In this document: one piece after another, positions 6,093 through 44,473 of the stretch | Layout: every line of letters starts with the position of its first letter | Position numbering within the stretch: position 1 is the first letter of the stretch | Assembly (NCBI GenBank): GCA_964601615.1 | Contig: CAZRNZ010000002.1 | Span: 142,826-206,825, forward strand | Direction of reading: 5' to 3' | Source of the DNA: an uncultured Candidatus Saccharibacteria bacterium | GTDB taxonomy: Bacteria; Patescibacteriota; Minisyncoccia; Phycocordibacterales; UBA918 | DNA length: 64,000 bases | Translations under genes and position numbers: made by a program | Notes under the pieces: model-generated | Told to the model about the DNA's origin: nothing | What the model saw: the letters and a program-made list of their open reading frames with translations, nothing else | Databases searched by the model: none

Positions 6093-6740
6093 ATGTTTGA
6101 AATAGCCTCAATAATAATCATTGCAGTACTGATAATATCTATTGTTCTGCATGAAATTGCCCATGGCTGGATGGCTAATTACCTTGGTGATCCAACGGCT
6201 AAGTTACAAGGAAGGTTGTCGCCAAATCCGTTGGTCCATATCGATCCAATTGGTTCTGTTTTAGTGCCTGGATTGTTGCTTTTGACTAATGCGGGAATAC
6301 TTTTTGGTTGGGCAAAACCAGTGCCTTATAATCCATATAACTTGCGTGACCAAAAGTGGGGAGAAGCTAAGGTTGCTATCGCTGGTCCGGTAGTAAACCT
6401 TATTTTAGCCTTAATTTTCGGCTTATTTATACGTTCTGCCGAATTTTTAGGATTAAGTGCCTCTGTAATTGAAATTTCATCCTATATTGTTTATATCAAT
6501 ATATTACTAGCTTTTTTCAACCTGATCCCATTTCCTCCACTAGATGGATCAAAGATAATTCAGCCTTTTTTGCCTTTGTCAGCTCAAATCGGATATCGCA
6601 AATTTGTGCAGAGTTTTGAGAGATTTGGCTTAATTGGCACCTTCTTATTTATCTTTATCTTTATAAATCTTCTTTGGACACCGTTTTCTAAAGTCGTTTT
6701 TGCAGTTTTTGAATTATTTACTGGACTTAGCGGTTTTTAA
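6093..6740 (+). CDS. Site-2 protease family (peptidase M50) membrane metalloprotease.
   Basis: HEIAHG (HExxH) inside the first TM helix. Polytopic membrane protein with an LDGS-type motif near the C-terminus. Confidence 0.75.
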   Translation: MFEIASIIIIAVLIISIVLHEIAHGWMANYLGDPTAKLQGRLSPNPLVHIDPIGSVLVPGLLLLTNAGILFGWAKPVPYNPYNLRDQKWGEAKVAIAGPVVNLILALIFGLFIRSAEFLGLSASVIEISSYIVYINILLAFFNLIPFPPLDGSKIIQPFLPLSAQIGYRKFVQSFERFGLIGTFLFIFIFINLLWTPFSKVVFAVFELFTGLSGF

Positions 6741-7819: not shown

Positions 7820-8647
7820 ATGGAAAGTTTTTCTAAAAATACATCAAATTCAGAAAAGGATAAAAATGGTTGGGGTAAGAATATTATAAAAGCCAGTGTT
7901 GTTGCAGGTATTTTAGCTGCCGCACCAACAATGAAGGCTGAGGCTCTGGAAATAGAACCAACCGCTTCTTGGAATCAAGGTATTGATGCTGCCAAAAACA
8001 GCGTACAAGAAGATATAAATGAGACACAGTTTACTTTCTTTAAGACAGGTGAAGGAGTTGGATATTGGTCTCCCATGACTGAAGGTGAAGTTGATACGGT
8101 TGCTCTTGAAGTGACAAAGATTACTCAAATAGCTAAAGAAAAGATATCTGGTGGAGAAATTGAGTCGATTTGTGTTGGACACACTCATCCAATTATTCCA
8201 GAATATGCTGAGTACTTTTCCGAGGGTGATGACAGGTGGAGAACCATATCTATTCCTCCTAGCGAGGGTGATATAAAAACAGTCTATTCGCTTGTTGGGG
8301 AGTTTATGAGATATGGCTTGGATCCTCAACATAATCTTGAATCATTTGCTGTGGATGCTAGAGGTGTTTGGTATTATGACTATGTCCACAAAGCAGATCT
8401 TGAGTCAGAAACTGAATTTGAGATGGTTAAGAATCATGGCTCAGAGGAAGCTAGAGGACAGTGGTTGCAAGATATGACTAGTTTCGTAAATGATACTATT
8501 GATCCCGATATTGATGTCAGAGAATTGGATTCATATAAGCAGTTGCAGCATTCTTATCGTGTGAATTTGGCAGCTAGTGTAAGGTTTGTGCCTTTTTCTG
8601 AAATTAATGAAGAGGCTCCTTGTGCTGGAGTTAGGCCTTCTGAGTAG
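7820..8647 (+). CDS. Hypothetical secreted protein inserted between rpsG and fusA.
   Basis: N-terminal signal peptide (IIKASVVAGILAAAPTMKAEA). Contains CVGHTHP...SEGDD and PPSEGD (a possible HxH...S..D metal-binding motif). Not recognisable as a known family. Confidence 0.5.
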   Translation: MESFSKNTSNSEKDKNGWGKNIIKASVVAGILAAAPTMKAEALEIEPTASWNQGIDAAKNSVQEDINETQFTFFKTGEGVGYWSPMTEGEVDTVALEVTKITQIAKEKISGGEIESICVGHTHPIIPEYAEYFSEGDDRWRTISIPPSEGDIKTVYSLVGEFMRYGLDPQHNLESFAVDARGVWYYDYVHKADLESETEFEMVKNHGSEEARGQWLQDMTSFVNDTIDPDIDVRELDSYKQLQHSYRVNLAASVRFVPFSEINEEAPCAGVRPSE

Positions 8648-13137: not shown

Positions 13138-13935
13138 ATGCAAGTTTTTAGCTGTTTATGCTATATTGGGCGAGTGAAAAATACCAAAAGTAAACTAAAG
13201 GACGAGAAGATTTATATCTATGGTCGCCACTCACTAGTGGAAGCTCTTCGTGATGCACCTCATACTATTAAGACAGTTTTTCTAGAAAATGCTGAAAATG
13301 AGCCAGAAATTGTATCTTTAGCTGAAGTTGGTAAGGTGCCAGTAAAGCAACTTGGTAATGAAGCTCGGGCAGTAGGGAAAGACGCTGTTCATCAAGGTGT
13401 AATTGGAGTCTTTAACCCAAAGGCACTTTTTGTTGATTTAAAGAAATTTCTCGATGAGGTTGATTTAAGTACGAATCCCGCAGTAGCGGTTTGTGCTGAG
13501 GTACAAGATCCACACAACCTTGGAGCTATTATACGTTCAGCGGCAGCACTTGGTATGTCTGCAGTAATTATTCCTGAACACCGCCAAGTTTCTATTACTG
13601 GAACGGTGGTAAAAACTTCTGTAGGAATGGTTTTTCGCATCCCAATTATTAGGGTTGGTAATGTAAATCAGACGCTAACTACTTTAAAGGAATCTGGTTT
13701 CTGGACTTATGGACTAGATATGGAAGGGGAGGTTTTGACTGAGACAAAGTTTGACCGACCAAGTGTATTCATTGTAGGGAATGAAGGAGCTGGTATTCGG
13801 GAAAAATCTTTAGAGCTTTGCGATTATCGCCTTTCTATTCCGATGCACTCTCGCACTGAATCACTAAATGCGGCAGTTTCAGCTGCTGTAGTATTCTATG
13901 AGTGGAGTCGTCAAAATCCATCTCATTTAAAATAA
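13138..13935 (+). CDS. TrmH/SpoU-family RNA 2'-O-methyltransferase (RlmB-like). The true start may be GTG at 13174.
   Basis: N-terminal IYGRHSLVEAL..., and C-terminal GNEGAGIREKSLELCDYRLSIPMHSRTESLNAAVSAAVVFYEW (SPOUT motif). Confidence 0.8.
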   Translation: MQVFSCLCYIGRVKNTKSKLKDEKIYIYGRHSLVEALRDAPHTIKTVFLENAENEPEIVSLAEVGKVPVKQLGNEARAVGKDAVHQGVIGVFNPKALFVDLKKFLDEVDLSTNPAVAVCAEVQDPHNLGAIIRSAAALGMSAVIIPEHRQVSITGTVVKTSVGMVFRIPIIRVGNVNQTLTTLKESGFWTYGLDMEGEVLTETKFDRPSVFIVGNEGAGIREKSLELCDYRLSIPMHSRTESLNAAVSAAVVFYEWSRQNPSHLK

Positions 13936-23097: not shown

Positions 23098-23130
23098 AAA
23101 AGCGCCGCCTAAAGGGCGGCGCTTTTTGTT
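23098..23130 (+). terminator. Terminator after rplE, a member of the recurrent GCGCCGCC-NAAG-GGCGGCGC hairpin family.
   Basis: AAAGCGCCGCCTAAAGGGCGGCGCTTTTT. Confidence 0.7.
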
Positions 23131-33330: not shown

Positions 33331-33360
33331 AAAAGCGCCGCCCGAAGGGCGGCGCTTTTT
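33331..33360. terminator. Bidirectional terminator (AAAAGCGCCGCCCGAAGGGCGGCGCTTTTT) between convergent genes. Member of the recurrent hairpin family.
   Basis: Perfect 9-bp GC stem, GAAG loop, A-run and T-run. Confidence 0.75.
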
Positions 33361-36880: not shown

Positions 36881-36910
36881 AAAAGCGCCGCCCGAAGGGC
36901 GGCGCTTTTG
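36881..36910. terminator. Bidirectional terminator (AAAAGCGCCGCCCGAAGGGCGGCGCTTTTG). Member of the recurrent hairpin family.
   Basis: Identical stem-loop to 33331 and 40888. Confidence 0.75.
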
Positions 36911-37984: not shown

Positions 37985-38089
37985 ATATTAGTAAATATAT
38001 CACCAGTACATTTAACTAATATTACTACCTTACGGCAGAAAGGGGATAACGAAATTTAAATTTATTTAAGACAAAAGTAAAACAACACA

Positions 38090-38145
38090 AAAAGCGCCGC
38101 CCAAAGGGCAGCGCTTCTTAGATTGTCCTTTTGTGGACATAGCAC
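38090..38145 (+). repeat. Distal direct repeat (attR-like) of the ssrA-proximal sequence. It comprises the GC hairpin plus a 23-nt extension (GATTGTCCTTTTGTGGACATAG) resembling the tmRNA 3' end.
   Basis: About 46 of 52 nt identical to 40888..40941 in the same orientation. The extension is absent from the other hairpin copies. Confidence 0.6.
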
Positions 38146-38354
38146 TTCTTAGCTCGAATCAGATGAAGGACTTTGTATTTGAGTGGTACGGCTCCTTCTC
38201 ACGTCCAGAAAATGCCAATTTATACGTTGGAAACAATGAACTATCGCACAAGTAAGTAATTGAATAGAGAGTATAAGTAAACAGTGATAGCGACCGCTTG
38301 GAAAATAAAAAGGTCGCCAGATATTGGCGACCTAGAACTTCCATCAAAACGCTT

Positions 38355-39251
38355 TTACCCCTTTCGCTTCTTCCGCTTTTTGACCGTCTTTTTACCCGAA
38401 AGATCTTTTTTGAACTGTTCCAAGAGTTGTGGTTCCTCGTTTACGTACGAAACGATAGTACTGTTTGTGTAAGGAACAATTTTCTTAAGCACTTTTTTTG
38501 ACGGCGCTTTTCGTTCACCTGTTGTTTTTAGAATGGTGCACAGTCCTGATCTCGGATCATTAAGGTGGCGCTCTTGTTCGAACGGCAGAATGTATTTGTT
38601 GTAGTAGTCACTGCCATTGATGGCTATCTCAATATTGGCGATGGCCTTGGGTACAAGCAGGATTGGCACCCCGTTGTGCACCGGTAGTCGGAACTCATCG
38701 CCTTCCTGCCACTTCGCGTCTGTAGGACTCCAGGTCATAAATTTGCCAACTGGCTGAGCGGGGACATTGTGCAACTTTGCTTGCTCAATGGTGTACTCGA
38801 CCAACAGCGGTAGACAGATATTTGTCACGATGTCTGAAATTTTGTCCTTACCAATGCCTGGAATAAGTAGGGCGGTATCCTCAATATCCTTCAGTACGCC
38901 AGTTTTTACTGCATGACTGCTTTTCAGGGCTTGGTAAATTTGCTCAGCGTGCTCTGTTGCTATCGCTTTTCCTCGCATACCAACTGCAGAGTAACCAAAT
39001 CGAGTCCAATTGACTTCATGGAGGTTGTCTAGGAGTTCGGTAGCTCGTTTTTCATCCCCTGAGCGGATACTTTTGATCAATTCATCGAAATAGGTTTGAA
39101 GGTACTCAGAGCATACGTACCCAAACTCGCTCTCAAGGTCTTTGATGAGCCAGGGGTCGATGAACTCAAGGTTGTCTTTAGTAAGGTTAATGTCGACAAA
39201 ATCGATTTTTGCCGGGTTGGTCGTAAGACCAAAGTGTTGTGTGAAATTCAC
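38355..39251 (-). CDS. Hypothetical protein, 298 aa, with a K/R-rich C-terminal tail. It is the cargo gene downstream of the HTH/ImmA pair and has no recognisable family.
   Basis: Intact ORF, GC-richer than the genome. Own terminator hairpin at 38309-38335 (GGTCGCCA-GATAT-TGGCGACC). Confidence 0.5.
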   Translation of the reverse strand: MNFTQHFGLTTNPAKIDFVDINLTKDNLEFIDPWLIKDLESEFGYVCSEYLQTYFDELIKSIRSGDEKRATELLDNLHEVNWTRFGYSAVGMRGKAIATEHAEQIYQALKSSHAVKTGVLKDIEDTALLIPGIGKDKISDIVTNICLPLLVEYTIEQAKLHNVPAQPVGKFMTWSPTDAKWQEGDEFRLPVHNGVPILLVPKAIANIEIAINGSDYYNKYILPFEQERHLNDPRSGLCTILKTTGERKAPSKKVLKKIVPYTNSTIVSYVNEEPQLLEQFKKDLSGKKTVKKRKKRKG

Positions 39252-39422
39252 AGATTTAGGATTAAACTTTTAATTTCGGCACTAAATCTGCTACACTGGA
39301 GCAAATGAAAAACACCTCAAGCCTTAATTGGGCGTGATCGCAAGTCGAACCCAGTAAGTCTTTAGTTTTTCATCGGGTGATTTAGTCCCGACAAAAGCCG
39401 CCATTATTGGTGGCTTTTGTCG

Positions 39423-40049
39423 TCACTCAATCTGGTTTCGGTTGTTTTTCAGTTGATAACCAAGTCGATGCATACGAATCTCTCCAGCGTGCCTTGATAA
39501 TCCGAAGCGCTCTGTCAGCAGTGGGGCAATCAAATCCATATCAACCCCTTCTGTATGGAAGATAGGGCTACTTACACCGTTTTCTGATAACAAGTCCACT
39601 ACTAATGGGGCTGGGGCAATCAGGTATCCGGCGTAAGCATTGGCTTGCCATTCAATATGGCTATGCTTCTGAATATCTCGCCATTTCTGTAGCGATGCGC
39701 CTGCTACAAGACAAGTGTGCAGTGAGATGTGCCCCGCTTCGTGAGCAATAGTGAAGTTAATTCTCCCAGTGCTGTTGCATACCTCGGGGTCACATACAAT
39801 CCTTTTGTTTGTTGGATCATAATATCCCAACACTTCTACATCTGCTGGTTGGGGAATTGATTCGTATTCGACCCTGACGCCGAAGACACTTTCTACAAAC
39901 TGGTCAATATCAAGTGGCAGGTTTATATCTTGGGTTGATACACCACGATATTTTGCCAGATCTTGAATCGCCTGACTCTCAACATCAGCGTGCGAAAGGT
40001 AGTATGTTTTTACGGAAAGACCGCTTTTGCTGGTGAGTCGTATAGTCAT
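39423..40049 (-). CDS. ImmA/IrrE-family zinc metallopeptidase (COG2856-like).
   Basis: TIAHEAGHISLH (HExxH) in the appropriate context. 208 aa. Directly downstream of the XRE HTH gene, with a 3-nt gap. Confidence 0.7.
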   Translation of the reverse strand: MTIRLTSKSGLSVKTYYLSHADVESQAIQDLAKYRGVSTQDINLPLDIDQFVESVFGVRVEYESIPQPADVEVLGYYDPTNKRIVCDPEVCNSTGRINFTIAHEAGHISLHTCLVAGASLQKWRDIQKHSHIEWQANAYAGYLIAPAPLVVDLLSENGVSSPIFHTEGVDMDLIAPLLTERFGLSRHAGEIRMHRLGYQLKNNRNQIE

Positions 40050-40052
40050 AAG

Positions 40053-40397
40053 TTATTTCTTGTCGCGTTTTCGGTAAAACACAACACTTTCCACTTTTCC
40101 GTAATCAACATTCGTGTCCTCTGCCACCATCCGTACTTTTTCAGTGGCAACTTGCTCAGCATAAATCTGAACTATTTCCATTCTCTCACTCTGGTTGGCA
40201 TTGTATGCGTTTAGGAGTTTTGCTAGCAACTCAGAGGAGGGTAGGATGATGCCCACCTCAAACTTATTCAGTTGGGTATAGAAAAATTTCGGGAAATCGC
40301 ACTCATCGGCGAGTGACTCACCTACCTTGCGGAGACTTATTCCCGGAAATTTTTTCTTTCGCAACTCTGCGATTTTCTCTCCAAATTCATTTTGCAT
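40053..40397 (-). CDS. XRE-family helix-turn-helix transcriptional regulator.
   Basis: GEKIAELRKKKFPGISLRKVGESLA is HTH_3-like. 114 aa. Confidence 0.7.
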   Translation of the reverse strand: MQNEFGEKIAELRKKKFPGISLRKVGESLADECDFPKFFYTQLNKFEVGIILPSSELLAKLLNAYNANQSERMEIVQIYAEQVATEKVRMVAEDTNVDYGKVESVVFYRKRDKK

Positions 40398-40660
40398 ACC
40401 ATCGTAGTATAGCAGAGTAAGTTGTAGTGTGCAAATATGCTACACATAGCACTATTGGCAATTACTAAATCGAGTTGTTGCTGACTCAGCTTTCGTTGAG
40501 ATATTGAATAAGGAAAGAGCTTTAGTCGAAACTTCAAAAGAGATAATTAAAGCTTTTGAACAAAAGGTTCAAGATAGAATCTCAGAAGTCTGGGGTGACT
40601 AGTTCGACTAAACTGAATTAGTGTTCTAAAATAAATCTATGTCTAAATCGCGAACACAAA

Positions 40661-40882
40661 GTGGGTGAGGATGTTAAAAGTCTGCAACGCTTCCTAAATA
40701 ACCAAGGATTTATTGTTGCAGAATCAGGAAAGATTGGATCTATTGGTTTTGAAAGTAATTACTTTGGAGACATTACAAGGGAATCTTTAGCGAGGTTCCA
40801 GTATCGAAATAATATAGAACCAGCTTTTGGTTATTTTGGTACAACTACAAGGCAGTTAATTAATTCCATGATTAGTAGATAA
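40661..40882 (+). CDS. Peptidoglycan-binding domain (PG_binding_1-like) protein fragment with a GTG start. Probably a remnant of a lysin or hydrolase.
   Basis: GEDVKSLQRFLNNQGF...GKIGSIGFESNYFGDITRESLARFQ matches the PGBD repeat. Only 73 aa. Confidence 0.45.
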   Translation: MGEDVKSLQRFLNNQGFIVAESGKIGSIGFESNYFGDITRESLARFQYRNNIEPAFGYFGTTTRQLINSMISR

Positions 40883-40887
40883 AAACA

Positions 40888-40941
40888 TAAAGCGCCGCCC
40901 GAAGGGCGGCGCTTTTTGATTGTCTTTATGTGGAGATGGGG
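40888..40941. repeat. Proximal direct repeat: a GC hairpin that doubles as the ssrA terminator, plus the 3' end of tmRNA. It pairs with 38090..38145.
   Basis: AAAGCGCCGCCCGAAGGGCGGCGCTTTTTGATTGTCTTTATGTGGAGATGGGG. Confidence 0.6.
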
Positions 40942-41321
40942 AGAATTGAACTCCCGTCCGAGAACGTTGGTTAATATGAATCTACAATGCGTAGTTTTTC
41001 TTTGAAATTTAAATGTAGAAGATAGAAGAAAAACGAAAGATTTCTACATCGAGTTCCTGACATTCATCTTTTTGTTGGAACAACGCAAAAAGATATACCC
41101 CGATGTCTATTCCACTCAGACTACCTTATCAGGAATAGGGTAGGTGAGCGTCGCGAATTCGCGAGCTTAAAGTTAAGCTCGAGCGAAAGCGAACCCGTAT
41201 GCAAACGGGCTTGGTACGCTTTTGTCTGCACGTACAGTGTGAGTAACTTTTAACGAATTGCTACTCAATTTCGGCATGCACATATTAAACTAACAACGAA
41301 CCGTCGATGCCTAGCATCCCC
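40931..41321 (-). ncRNA. ssrA: tmRNA (ssrA), about 391 nt.
   Basis: The minus strand reads 5'-GGGGAUGCUAGGCAUCGACGG...UGUGCAUGCCGA... and ends ...GGACGGGAGUUCAAUUCUCCCCAUCUCCA-3'. This gives a tRNA-like acceptor (GGGGAUG/CAUCUCC) plus a T-arm, and the conserved UCGACGG and GUGCAUGCCGA elements. A candidate tag reading frame ends ...AYGFAFARA-UAA, with the stop at 41173-41175 inside a GAGCUUAA..UUAAGCUC hairpin. Confidence 0.85.
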
Positions 41322-41830: not shown

Positions 41831-42280
41831 TTAATCTCCTCTCTTTAATATCCGCTCAATCTCACGTTTCGTGTCACGTTCTTTCAGTGTCTCGCGCTTG
41901 TCTTGTTTTTTCTTTCCGCGAGCCGTAGCGATTTCGAGCTTCAACTTACTTCCTTTATTATACCACTTAATTGGTATAATTGTCAAACCACGCTTCTCGC
42001 TTTCTGTGTACAACTCTTCGAGCTCTTTTTTAGAAAGAAGAAGTTTTCGTGGTCTTTCTGAATCGTGATTTTTGTCAGCATTAGTTTTCTGGAAAGGAGG
42101 AATGGAGGAGTTTACCAAATAAGCCTCGCCACCACGAATTACCACGTGAGAACCGTCTAATTTGCCTTGATTGGCACGAAGTGACTTTACTTCTGTACCG
42201 AGTAAGCTCACACCAGCTTCGTATCTTTTGAGTACTTCAAAATCAAACGTTGCCTTCTTATTTTTTACTAAATCTGCCAT
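41831..42280 (-). CDS. smpB: SsrA-binding protein SmpB. The start is taken at MADLVKNKK rather than the longer ORF-track start.
   Basis: KKATFDFEVLKRYEAGVSLLGTEVKSLRANQGKLDGSHVVIRGGEAYLVN...LLLSKKELEEL... Confidence 0.9.
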   Translation of the reverse strand: MADLVKNKKATFDFEVLKRYEAGVSLLGTEVKSLRANQGKLDGSHVVIRGGEAYLVNSSIPPFQKTNADKNHDSERPRKLLLSKKELEELYTESEKRGLTIIPIKWYNKGSKLKLEIATARGKKKQDKRETLKERDTKREIERILKRGD

Positions 42281-42329
42281 TTGTATATAAATATAGCAAA
42301 AACGTGGTCTTTCTGTATAATTTGCTCGT

Positions 42330-44342
42330 ATGAGTGATAAAAAAACTAATAAAAACAAAGGGAACCAAAAGGCTGGAAAGGGGGGTAAAAATAATCTAAT
42401 GAAGAATTTTGGTCCAGGAAATTTCTGGAACAACATGCTTTCAACTGTGGTGGTTTTGATGTTGCTGGTGGCAACTTATTCATACATCGCTGAAAAACAA
42501 AACAAAGTAGATGAAATTTCTTTGTCAGAAATTTCTGCTCAAATAAAATCTAATGAGATAGAAAGTATTATTGTGCGCGGCTCTAAGTTGGAGGTGTCAT
42601 ATAAAGATGAATCTCGCAATAAAGCTGAAGGTAAAAAAGAAAGCGGTGCTTCACTAACAGAAACTTTGGTGAATCTTGGAGTTGATAATGAATCTTTGAA
42701 CACTGTAAAGATTGATGTAAAAAATGAAACTGGTGCTGCTTATTACTTGGCAACTTTTGCTCCATTCATTTTCCCGTTATTACTTTTGCTTTTGATAATC
42801 TGGTTCTTCACTCGCTCTGTTAAAGGTGCTGGAGTGCAGGCGCTTAACTTTGGGCAAAGTAAAGCTCGTGTTATTGATCCTAATGATGCTTCACAGAAAG
42901 TAACTTTCAAGGATGTTGCTGGTGCTAAGGAGGCAAAGCAAGAACTTGAGGAGATTGTAGATTTCTTGAAGAATCCAAAAAAGTTTATTGATATTGGTGC
43001 AGAGATTCCAAAAGGTGTTCTTTTGATGGGACCTGCTGGAACAGGTAAGACTCTTTTGGCTCGTGCTGTAGCTGGAGAAGCTGGTGTGCCGTTTTTCTCA
43101 ATCTCTGGTTCAGAGTTTGTCGAGATGTTTGTGGGTGTTGGTGCTTCTCGTGTGCGTGACTTATTTGCGATGGCCAAGAAGGCGGCTCCAGCAATCATCT
43201 TCGTAGATGAGATTGATGCGGTTGGACGTATTCGTGGTACTGGTATCGGTGGTGGAAACGATGAGCGTGAACAAACTCTTAACCAAATCTTGGTAGAGAT
43301 GGATGGTTTTGAGCCAAGTCAGAAGGTGATTATTATGGCTGCTACAAACCGTCCAGATGTACTTGATCCAGCACTAGTTCGTCCAGGACGTTTTGATAGA
43401 CGAGTTACTATTGATCTTCCTGATCGTGATGATCGCAAAGCTATTTTGACGGTGCATGCTCGTAAGAAGCCGTTGACTGAAGATGTGAATTTGGATACGG
43501 TAGCGACTCGTACTCCTGGTTTCTCTGGAGCAGATTTGTACTCACTTATGAACGAGGCTGCTATCTTAGCGGCACGTGAAGAAAGAAAGCAGGTTTCTCA
43601 ATTCGATATTATCCGCTCAATTGAAAAGGTAATGCTTGGACCTGAGCGAAAGAGTCATCTACTTTCTAAGAAGGAAAGAGAAGTGACTGCTTATCACGAG
43701 GCAGGACATGCTTTGGTAGCTTCTGTACTTCCTTATGCTGATCCAGTACAGAAGATTTCTATCATCTCTCGTGGACGTGCAGCTGGATATACTTTAAAGT
43801 TGCCAGATCAAGATAGAAAAATGCATTCTAAGAAAGAGTTTATTGACGACATTGCTATGACACTCGGTGGCTATGTAGCTGAGCAAATGATATTTGGTGA
43901 TTTAACCACTGGTCCTTCTAATGACTTGCAGGTAGTGGCAAATCTGGCTCGTGATATGGTGACTAAGTATGGTATGAGTGAAAGACTTGGTCCTGTTGCT
44001 CTGGAAGGTTCTGGTGGTAGATTGATTGGTGGTGGAGTCGGTGAAGATAGAGGATATTCTCCAGAAATTGCTAAAGCGATTGATGATGAGGTTTCTAAGC
44101 TTATTACCGACGGACTAAATACTGCTAGAGAAATGCTTACTAAGTATCGTCCAGCTCTTGATGCTATTTCTAAACGATTGGTTGAGGTGGAAACTTTGGA
44201 GCGTGAAGAGTATGAAAATATTTTGAAAGCACAAGGTGTTGAAATACAAGATGCTTATCGCGATGAAGCGATTGAAGAAGGCAGAACCATTGCTGATCCA
44301 AGTAAGTCTGTAGAATTTGATGCAGATCATTTGAAAGGGTAG
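42330..44342 (+). CDS. ftsH: ATP-dependent zinc metalloprotease FtsH.
   Basis: Two TM helices, an AAA module ([18 protein letters not shown], Walker B, SRH) and HEAGHA (zinc site). Confidence 0.95.
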
Positions 44343-44390: not shown

Positions 44391-44399
44391 ATCTAAATG

Positions 44400-44473
44400 T
44401 CCGCCCTCTTGGATTTGAACCAAGGACCCCAGAGGTATAAGCTCTGTGCTCTAACCAACTGAGCTAAGGGCGG
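44400..44473 (-). tRNA. tRNA-Ile with anticodon UAU, predicted to decode AUA.
   Basis: Hand-folded cloverleaf: acceptor CCGCCCT/AGGGCGG, D-arm GCTC...GAGC, anticodon stem CAGAG/CTCTG with loop CTTATAC, T-arm CTTGG-TTCAAAT-CCAAG, discriminator A. Confidence 0.75.

Follow-up and report, generated by a model that had tools for sequence, protein, structure and literature searches.

Islands at ssrA, the gene of transfer-messenger RNA (tmRNA), are known from Dehalococcoides, where the gene of the large serine recombinase (LSR) DsiB adjoins ssrA and where dsiB has been suggested to be complete only in the circular form (McMurdie et al. 2011, PMC3146451). Pairs of an XRE-type helix-turn-helix (HTH) protein and an M78 metallopeptidase are represented by CapH/CapP, ImmR/ImmA and DdrO/IrrE (Lau et al. 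2022, bioRxiv 10.1101/2022.04.27.489752; Calloji et al. 2026, PMC13228613). The type IIS and modification-dependent restriction endonucleases FokI, N.BspD6I, MspJI and AspBHI combine a recognition domain with a C-terminal FokI-type cleavage domain. Here, we compare with these systems a locus at positions 38133-40929 of a 64-kb stretch of a Patescibacteria genome (contig CAZRNZ010000002.1; "the window" denotes this whole stretch, L numbers denote comparison loci and P numbers homologous proteins). We propose, with moderate confidence, that the locus is a decayed ssrA island of the LSR type, and that its surviving cargo is a nuclease-less protein of the DUF8370 family, putatively gated both by a repressor/peptidase pair and by an RNA element.

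The island junction was defined by comparison with L001/L088, an 11.8-kb contig that carries P0001, the closest homologue (89% identical) of the 298-aa DUF8370 protein of the window. Window positions 38133-40504 and L088 share 85.7% DNA identity over a 2.4-kb block comprising the HTH, M78 and 298-aa genes with their flanks. Distal homology ends exactly after CTATGTCCAC, at window 38133; beyond this point the window continues with a spacer and a hairpin, and L088 with unrelated DNA. Over 8-10 nt, the island end therefore imitates the 3' end of tmRNA (ATGTCCAC vs ATCTCCAC in tmRNA); this short core is followed by a duplicated spacer. These data support the assignment of the left repeat as the distal junction of the island. 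Past the three genes, L088 encodes an 851-aa hsdR-like protein, an 819-aa N6-methyltransferase (MTase)/Eco57I/Methylase_S fusion, small open reading frames (ORFs) and, at the contig end that would face ssrA, an LSR. Homologues of this LSR are convergent to ssrA, 20-26 nt off its 3' end, in the relatives L016 (E 7e-79) and L028 (E 3e-107, 41% identity over 499 aa; tmRNA confirmed by Rfam). Their ORFs (L016 11713-13322, L028 10884-12362) continue past the island junction into sequence antisense to the tmRNA 3' end, with the read-through ends ...VEMGGVEPPSE and ...VEMGEIESP, respectively. The order distal end, gene triad, restriction-modification (RM) genes, LSR, t(m)RNA is common to the window, L088 and L094, the last of which has an equivalent island (triad, HpaII-type RM, LSR) that lies against tRNA-Ser and whose recombinase is of a second family.

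The first-pass annotation had described a decayed mobile element abutting the ssrA 3' end, with no integrase left between the repeats, and both statements are borne out by the L088 breakpoint and by the ORF annotation of the window, in which no recombinase is present. Because the LSR is missing, the window locus is at best a decayed member of this ssrA-island type. A scar of the lost genes is retained: proximal L088 homology ends 30 nt into the hsdR-like gene, and a short remnant there fuses the beginning of this gene, at a (F/I)VE microhomology, to the end of the MTase/specificity gene (L088 residues 784-819, blastp-short E 8.8e-8, with the match ending at the stop codon), indicating that ~5 kb of RM genes were deleted relative to L088. 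The block is also richer in GC, as the first pass had noticed (44.0% vs 39.3% in the rest of the window), and is the richest 2.4-kb stretch of the window. By contrast with this figure, positions 40505-40929 have a host-like GC content of 35.5%; they hold a PG_binding_1 ORF with no counterpart in L088, which is probably a remnant. At the distal end, a 40-codon ORF (orf40) begins GTG GAC ATA on the att core, in the same frame and on the same core as the LSR ORFs of L016 and L028, and is co-directional with the position expected for the recombinase gene after circularisation. We infer that the recombinase gene, in its attP, or circular, configuration, may have its 3' end in orf40; a word search returned no protein homologue of it.

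This anatomy resembles that of the Dehalococcoides islands in several respects. In both cases the island lies directly 3' of a single-copy ssrA, its distal boundary is a short repeat of the ssrA 3' end, and an LSR gene of ~520-540 aa runs on the opposite strand into ssrA, which is seen here in L016 and L028. Islands that have decayed or lack an integrase are retained in both, and the two may share a further trait, a far-end fragment that supplies the 3' part of the LSR ORF in the circle. The two differ in that insertion occurs in the T-loop in Dehalococcoides and at the extreme tmRNA 3' end here, where the core measures ~8-10 nt, and in that the window recombinase is lost. The cargo consists of dehalogenases there and of RM genes with HTH, M78 and DUF8370 genes here, and the present case belongs to another phylum.

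The two repeats had been taken as ~52-nt attL/attR sites, the classic signature of site-specific integration. Two same-orientation copies do exist (~65 nt aligned, ~83% identical, one indel), but they consist mostly of a dispersed hairpin. This 25-nt GC hairpin, AAGCGCCGCCCGAAGGGCGGCGCTT, is present in five copies in the window, all intergenic and three of them exact, the copy at 40890 included, and a similar hairpin closes the DUF8370 gene in another locus. Dispersed between genes as it is, it is thus a lineage-typical terminator, probably bidirectional, that is uninformative on integration; it could also serve as a substrate for rearrangements. The specific duplication amounts to only ~20-24 nt, a core like the tmRNA 3' end plus the spacer, and the extension AT[C/G]TCCACA[T/A]AA[A/G]GACAATC on the tmRNA side is confined to the two sites (two matches in the window, 0 expected). 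As for the right copy, T1, it holds the tmRNA end and the terminator as had been noted, but it looks like an intact native ssrA 3' flank (tmRNA end, spacer, terminator, the arrangement seen in relatives) and not like an attL.

A classic tyrosine-integrase island, in which the two repeats would be the ~52-nt attL and attR and the tmRNA end plus terminator the identity block, would explain why the block is bordered by similar segments in direct orientation and why the right one overlaps the tmRNA 3' end. Furthermore, a long-form DUF8370 gene of Pseudomonas aeruginosa lies in an island with a tyrosine integrase beside tRNA-Ser. We nevertheless hold this explanation to be improbable, because 25 nt of the repeat are the dispersed terminator, because the mobile block of L088 shares with the repeat only the ~10-nt core, and because the recombinase linked to the block is an LSR, with no tyrosine integrase in the window region or in L088. 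The likely integrase family is instead that of the LSRs of L088, L016 and L028. A far more sceptical view is that no island exists, the repeats being two common terminators with chance-similar flanks and the triad ordinary chromosomal cargo. Dispersal of the hairpin across the window and the lack of a recovered empty site agree with this view, which is made very improbable by the 20-nt flank found at two sites only, by the 85.7%-identical block set in unrelated flanks with its breakpoint at the core, and by the RM remnant, the GC outlier and the LSR homologues at ssrA in relatives.

The DUF8370 gene, the HTH gene, the M78 gene and a structured element are found together in eight of nine contexts. 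In five loci (window, L088, L006, L093, L094/95) the genes are split and follow one order: an HTH gene of 114-122 aa, an M78 gene of 206-213 aa, a gap of 170-190 nt and the short DUF8370 gene, with ~64-66% DNA similarity from the HTH promoter to the DUF8370 stop. Three loci (L002, L098/99, L100/101) encode instead a divergent, fused HTH_3 + M78 protein of 375-379 aa, and these fused proteins match the PADLOC profiles PD-Lambda-2_B (4e-41 for L002) and RmrA. This sister subclade is therefore like PD-Lambda-2 component B and RmrA in having a single fused regulator, whereas the window encodes the two domains in separate genes, and other PD-Lambda-2 components were not identified beside DUF8370. 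A metagenome scan for more loci gave no contigs beyond two already in the comparison set. The module genes evolve with ratios of nonsynonymous to synonymous substitution (dN/dS) of 0.06-0.12. Since the downstream gene is invariant in eight of nine contexts, the module is a fixed, dedicated unit and not a regulator with swappable cargo; this constancy weakens the signal-responsive defence reading that the first-pass annotation had offered for the triad.

All the ORFs that this annotation had listed (HTH, M78, the 298-aa protein with its K/R-rich tail and the PG_binding ORF) lie where it placed them. Its description of the 298-aa protein as unrecognisable does not hold: the protein matches PDC-M36A and phrog_27295 (Table 1), and all 94 homologues, the 89%-identical P0001 among them, carry the precomputed Pfam assignment PF28123, that is, DUF8370. 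We found no literature on DUF8370, PF28123 or PDC-M36. Despite the phrog_27295 match, no sign of a phage origin was obtained, with no tblastn match in 50,697 phage records and none in IMG/VR. PADLOC profiles match members of the triad, namely PDC-M36A and capP, but PDC-M36A is matched over its first half only (positions 8-230 of 457) and the PDC-M36 partner is absent beside the window gene, where neighbours match capP and RmrA, or nothing. Membership of PDC-M36 was rejected on account of the half-profile match and the missing partner.

Clustered at 50% identity, the family numbered 1,222 representatives in an exhaustive search. The majority of relatives are 475-495 aa long and possess an extra C-terminal domain with the signature GRKRIDI...ECKNY...ELDQLxGRF, a FokI-like PD-(D/E)xK nuclease (D...ExK motif). 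In having a recognition domain followed by such a cleavage domain, the long forms are built like FokI, N.BspD6I, MspJI and AspBHI. These long forms are preceded by a partner of 279-305 aa (a HARE-HTH protein in one case) and occur in defence-island-like contexts. They share with the short form a homologous ~285-aa N-terminal domain in which the invariant residues coincide and identity among the aligned long forms is 31-52%, and differ from it by the added FokI-like domain, by a partner that is not HTH + M78 and by the lack of the structured element. The short clade, P0001-P0011, comprises proteins of 295-302 aa, 55-89% identical, that end before the nuclease domain and have a conserved basic tail. 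Neither a nuclease-domain match nor a long-form paralogue was found anywhere in the 64-kb window. The dN/dS of the short form is 0.056, indicating strong purifying selection, and the 298-aa gene is therefore not broken. Its AF2 structure model is confident (pLDDT 88) and has no neighbour in PDB or BFVD; the best, weak structural match is a (HhH)2 domain, which fits a helix-hairpin-helix (HhH)-like motif in the sequence, LLIPGIGKDKISDIV.

The nearest long relative of the short clade, P0012, is encoded in L103, between the genes of a guanylate-cyclase-domain protein and of a DUF2726 protein; L103 has no HTH + M78 neighbours and no structured element. Proteins restricted to the N-terminal domain are frequent, ~47 of the top 150 family representatives being shorter than 360 aa. 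Nuclease-less DUF8370-like proteins of ~300-318 aa, 25-30% identical and annotated as hypothetical, are also carried by the small plasmids L104-L109 of Bacillus, Acinetobacter, Staphylococcus (qacA plasmids) and Rhodococcus (near an ArdC-like gene), for example NZ_AP022914.1, NZ_CP073833.1 and NZ_CP080956.1.

The abundance of such N-domain-only homologues, their presence on small plasmids, once beside an ArdC-like gene, and the position of the short clade in islands beside RM genes raise the question of whether short DUF8370 is a counter-defence protein or decoy of mobile elements, which would occupy a DNA feature or poison the oligomer of long forms or of other restriction enzymes. The need of FokI-type domains to dimerise before they can cut is in line with such a role. 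This reading appears distinctly unlikely, if a shade less so than the tyrosine-integrase island: the 64-kb window holds neither a long-form paralogue nor a free nuclease domain, the plasmid homologues are just 25-30% identical and lack the structured element, and inducible HTH + M78 repression is more typical of defence or prophage switches.

The gap between the M78 and DUF8370 genes is conserved to the same degree as the genes. The first pass had reported a hairpin in this 171-nt gap; the hairpin is present, but it is one stem of a conserved, multi-helix structure of 173 nt, with P1 as its outer helix, P2, P3 and P4 as further helices and a terminator-like hairpin at 39391-39420. RNAalifold returned a five-helix fold with 58 pairs and -51 kcal/mol, and the window copy alone folds with z = -5.1. 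A covariance model built from five loci found the three divergent-regulator loci outside its training set, with E values of 1e-17 to 6e-20, on the gene strand and directly 5' of DUF8370. It found the element nowhere besides these eight loci, and in particular neither upstream of long forms nor upstream of plasmid homologues. Over the eight sequences, some of which are closely related, 92.6% of cells are paired and 20 of the 58 pairs are compensatory, compared with at most 51% paired and 0-5 compensatory in slid-partner controls. No credible Rfam match was obtained over 39260-39432, even at E<=1. The 39391-39420 hairpin consists of a GC stem and a U-tract and is kept even where no gene precedes it, which suggests conditional termination. 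An alternative explanation of the conservation, a small ORF in the gap (ATGAAAAAC...), was discarded in favour of structure, since the peptides have 3-16 codons and are not conserved as ORFs. No convincing -35/-10 pair of an internal promoter was seen in the element by eye. In the window and L088 only, and not in the other loci, CAGAUUUAG (window 39253-39292, minus strand) can pair either with the upstream CUAAAUC (P2) or with the downstream CUAAAUCUG, which overlaps the GUG start codon, a possible start-codon-sequestering alternative.

Upstream of the element, the peptidase and the HTH protein resemble ImmR/ImmA and CapH/CapP, as had been suggested at the outset. As in these pairs and in DdrO/IrrE, an XRE HTH gene is followed by a co-directional M78 gene upstream of the regulated gene, and the active-site motif of the peptidase is intact. 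The M78 protein scores 27.9 bits against PF06114 (cut-off 22), and its best PADLOC match is capP (1.8e-15, profile positions 14-152 of 242); its sole PDB sequence match is CapP, 7t5t (E 9e-4, residues 84-174 of 291). HE(A/T)GH and the downstream Glu in IE(W/Y)QA (IEWQAN in the window) are invariant in five homologues, and dN/dS is 0.12. It also weakly matches the NCBIfam "spr1629 family repressor/antitoxin" model. Several traits set it apart. At 208 aa it is closer in size to ImmA; an invariant Cys lies five residues past the second His (LH[T/S]CL), whereas for the cysteine switch of E. coli CapP the distance is 13 residues; its regulated gene is invariant and not diverse; and an extra structured element precedes the target gene. 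In CapP and IrrE, a C-terminal GAF domain forms a groove that binds single-stranded DNA (ssDNA) (Calloji et al. 2026, PMC13228613). The window peptidase lacks GAF domain and groove according to the capP profile and the 7t5t alignment, so that triggering by ssDNA or DNA damage, as in CapP and IrrE, cannot simply be assumed; the first-pass annotation had presumed DNA-damage-responsive control at this locus. Membership of CapP proper was rejected on these domain grounds.

The HTH protein is 86% identical in L088 and 68% in L006 (dN/dS 0.09), its gene is adjacent to the peptidase gene and co-conserved with it, and its C-terminal tail (VRMVAEDTNV...) is nearly invariant. It had no capH match in PADLOC and no PDB match. 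We regard it as a candidate repressor and candidate substrate of the peptidase. Its promoter has near-consensus -35 and -10 elements, and the -10 ends ~8 nt before the ATG, making the transcript near-leaderless. A dyad, TGTAG(T/C)A-N-TACTACA, overlaps the -35, is kept in five loci and is operator-like.

The following sequence of events would account for the locus. The island would have lost its recombinase and ~5 kb of type I-like RM genes, while the four-part module was kept under strong purifying selection. The HTH protein probably represses its own near-leaderless promoter through the dyad over the -35, and the GAF-less ImmA/CapP-like peptidase probably inactivates this repressor by cleavage on some signal. 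The 173-nt leader with its terminator-like hairpin would probably add a second gate, at the RNA level. The short DUF8370 protein, with its HhH-like motif and basic tail, would represent the putative DNA-recognition half of a FokI-type, restriction-like family. Such a switch would be off by default, and derepression would yield a non-cutting protein that binds DNA or nucleic acid and functions in island maintenance, defence or counter-defence. Of this account, the anatomy, the constancy of the module, the island junction, the loss of the nuclease domain and the covariation are established by the sequence comparisons, and repression, cleavage, RNA gating and the activity of the effector are inferred.

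The purpose of the 298-aa protein may accordingly lie in defence, addiction or counter-defence. The second of these would correspond to a three-part toxin-antitoxin module that stabilises the island, with short DUF8370 as toxin, the HTH protein as antitoxin or repressor and the M78 protein as degrader of the antitoxin. Strict co-inheritance of the three genes, survival in an island stripped of all else, as is usual for addiction modules, and an apparently tight, two-layered control of expression are in line with this proposal, as are the PD-Lambda-2_B/RmrA matches of the fused proteins and the spr1629-type match of the peptidase. We consider it unlikely, though the most plausible of the rivals: no toxin-like catalytic domain was recognised in a family that is otherwise restriction-like, and the mechanism largely overlaps that of the decayed LSR island with gated DUF8370 cargo, from which it differs in purpose only. 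An equally doubtful, bolder extension is that the element represents a new structured-RNA class, either a leader sensing a ligand or a protein or an RNA cofactor, that gates or partners a nuclease-less DNA-recognition protein and, with a cleavable repressor, forms a hitherto undescribed type of inducible, non-nucleolytic immunity or addiction module found so far only in the candidate phyla radiation (CPR).

Several observations count against the decayed, gated LSR island that we favour. Simple integration does not give a native-looking T1, and neither an attL nor a recombinase survives in the window. Three scenarios could possibly account for T1: recombination with an island-free allele may have exchanged the ssrA-proximal part of the island, a second ssrA island may have been added and have decayed, comparable to the tandem arrays of Dehalococcoides, or the dispersed hairpins may have mediated a rearrangement. 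The check for an empty site in related genomes, an SmpB-anchored scan of GTDB genomes, recovered none, because the closest relatives share only ~71% SmpB identity. L102, a member of the short clade, has no regulators and no element in its 245 nt upstream. The HTH assignment rests on profile matches below threshold (HTH_31 at 17.3 bits vs the Pfam cut-off of 27), and the peptidase is devoid of the GAF domain. Regarding the element, paired cells amount to 92.6% in sense and 91.0% in antisense, and G-U vs A-C counts do not assign the strand; these figures derive from just eight sequences, some close kin, and an alignment fitted to the model. Finally, numerous invariant acidic residues and the lack of a structural neighbour mean that the N-terminal domain of DUF8370 could be an enzyme and not a module that binds DNA.

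Patescibacteria have tiny genomes, and their mobile elements and immunity are little known; here, a family of ssrA-targeting LSR islands is documented and a retained piece of one is described. DUF8370, with ~1,200 clusters at 50% identity that include members from P. aeruginosa, Bacillus and staphylococcal plasmids, is a PADLOC defence candidate, and it emerges as a family of FokI-type nucleases whose recognition domain, of a new fold, often occurs alone. The unannotated RNA motif shows compensatory changes in eight loci and is placed where regulation of a potentially harmful gene would be expected. Current concepts are not overturned, as clear precedents exist both for the regulator pair and for this type of island.

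Table 1. Positions of the features discussed, in window coordinates.
Feature	Position	Strand	Remarks
Left (distal) repeat T2, attR-like junction	38076-38145		island core ...CTATGTCCAC at 38133-38142 (island-borne), then native-like flank with spacer AAAAGGACAATCTAAG and diverged hairpin 38088-38120; L088 breakpoint
orf40, 40-codon ORF reading inward from the island end	38133-38255	+	kept in L088; dN/dS ~0.11
Intrinsic-terminator-like hairpin	38311-38333	-	directly after the DUF8370 stop codon; kept in L088
Short-form DUF8370 protein, 298 aa	38355-39251	-	PDC-M36A 1.3e-26, phrog_27295 2.9e-66; basic tail GKKTVKKRKKRKG
Structured element, candidate RNA leader	39260-39432	-	173 nt, multi-helix; directly 5' of the DUF8370 gene
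M78 (ImmA/IrrE/CapP-type) zinc metallopeptidase, 208 aa	39423-40049	-	PF06114 2e-6; HEAGH
XRE-type HTH protein, 114 aa	40053-40397	-	HTH_31 E 0.006, phrog_8 E 0.003, both weak
HTH promoter/operator	40398-40447	-	-35 TTTGCA, 18 nt, extended -10 TGcTATACT; promoter scan
Fused RM remnant	40474-40603	+	~10 first hsdR-like codons (VVADSAFVE) + ~36 last MTase/specificity codons (...ISEVWGD*); DNA match to L088 reaches 40504
PG_binding_1 ORF, 73 aa, single domain	40661-40882	+	PF01471, 2.7e-8; convergent with ssrA, T1 hairpin shared
Right (ssrA-proximal) repeat T1	40874-40941		last ~12 nt of tmRNA + spacer ATAAAGACAATC + exact hairpin copy 40889-40915
ssrA (tmRNA), intact	40930-41321	-	ARAGORN; Rfam RF00023, 114 bits, full length
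Hairpin AAGCGCCGCCCGAAGGGCGGCGCTT copies	23100-23124, 33333-33357, 36883-36907, 38092-38116, 40890-40914		window scan

The genome is that of a Paceibacterota-like patescibacterium. Its SmpB is at most 71% identical to that of any GTDB species representative, the best matches all being Paceibacterota, Kaiserbacteria or "Saccharibacteria" metagenome-assembled genomes. The tmRNA encodes the tag peptide ADKSVPSPFAYGFAFARA and ends in ...CCCCATCTCCA(C). Upstream of ssrA lie ftsH and smpB, and the FtsH-SmpB-ssrA order is kept in relatives. On the 3' side synteny is lost among them: in the SmpB-anchored scan, ssrA was followed in every case by a short spacer and a hairpin, and in none of the relatives by an AI-2E transporter gene. 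In L009, L010, L012 and L015, an inverted copy of the tmRNA 3' end (GTGGAGATGG...) lies beyond the ssrA terminator and is followed by a T-arm-like sequence interrupted by a hairpin; these inverted copies could be a precursor-processing structure or the scar of recombinase ORFs.

LOOT RNA (RF03000) was detected in L088 (2688-2803, minus strand) and twice in L028 (5897-6018, minus strand; 13609-13730, plus strand), and not in the window; in these two ssrA-island contexts it lies ~1.2 kb from the LSR gene. The repeats of L094 proved to be a large inverted duplication (1-240, 6161-6480 and 8030-8101) that connects the start of the contig with sequence upstream of the recombinase gene and with the tRNA-Ser junction. 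It reflects either a recombinase-mediated inversion or an assembly artefact, and was set aside as irrelevant to the island question.

The longest smpB ORF of the window (41831-42436, minus strand) has a hydrophobic N-terminal extension of 52 codons; the Pfam SmpB match begins at residue 57, and the true start is probably internal. A tRNA-Ile gene with the anticodon TAT (44399-44473) is kept near ftsH/smpB across the lineage, in most related loci.

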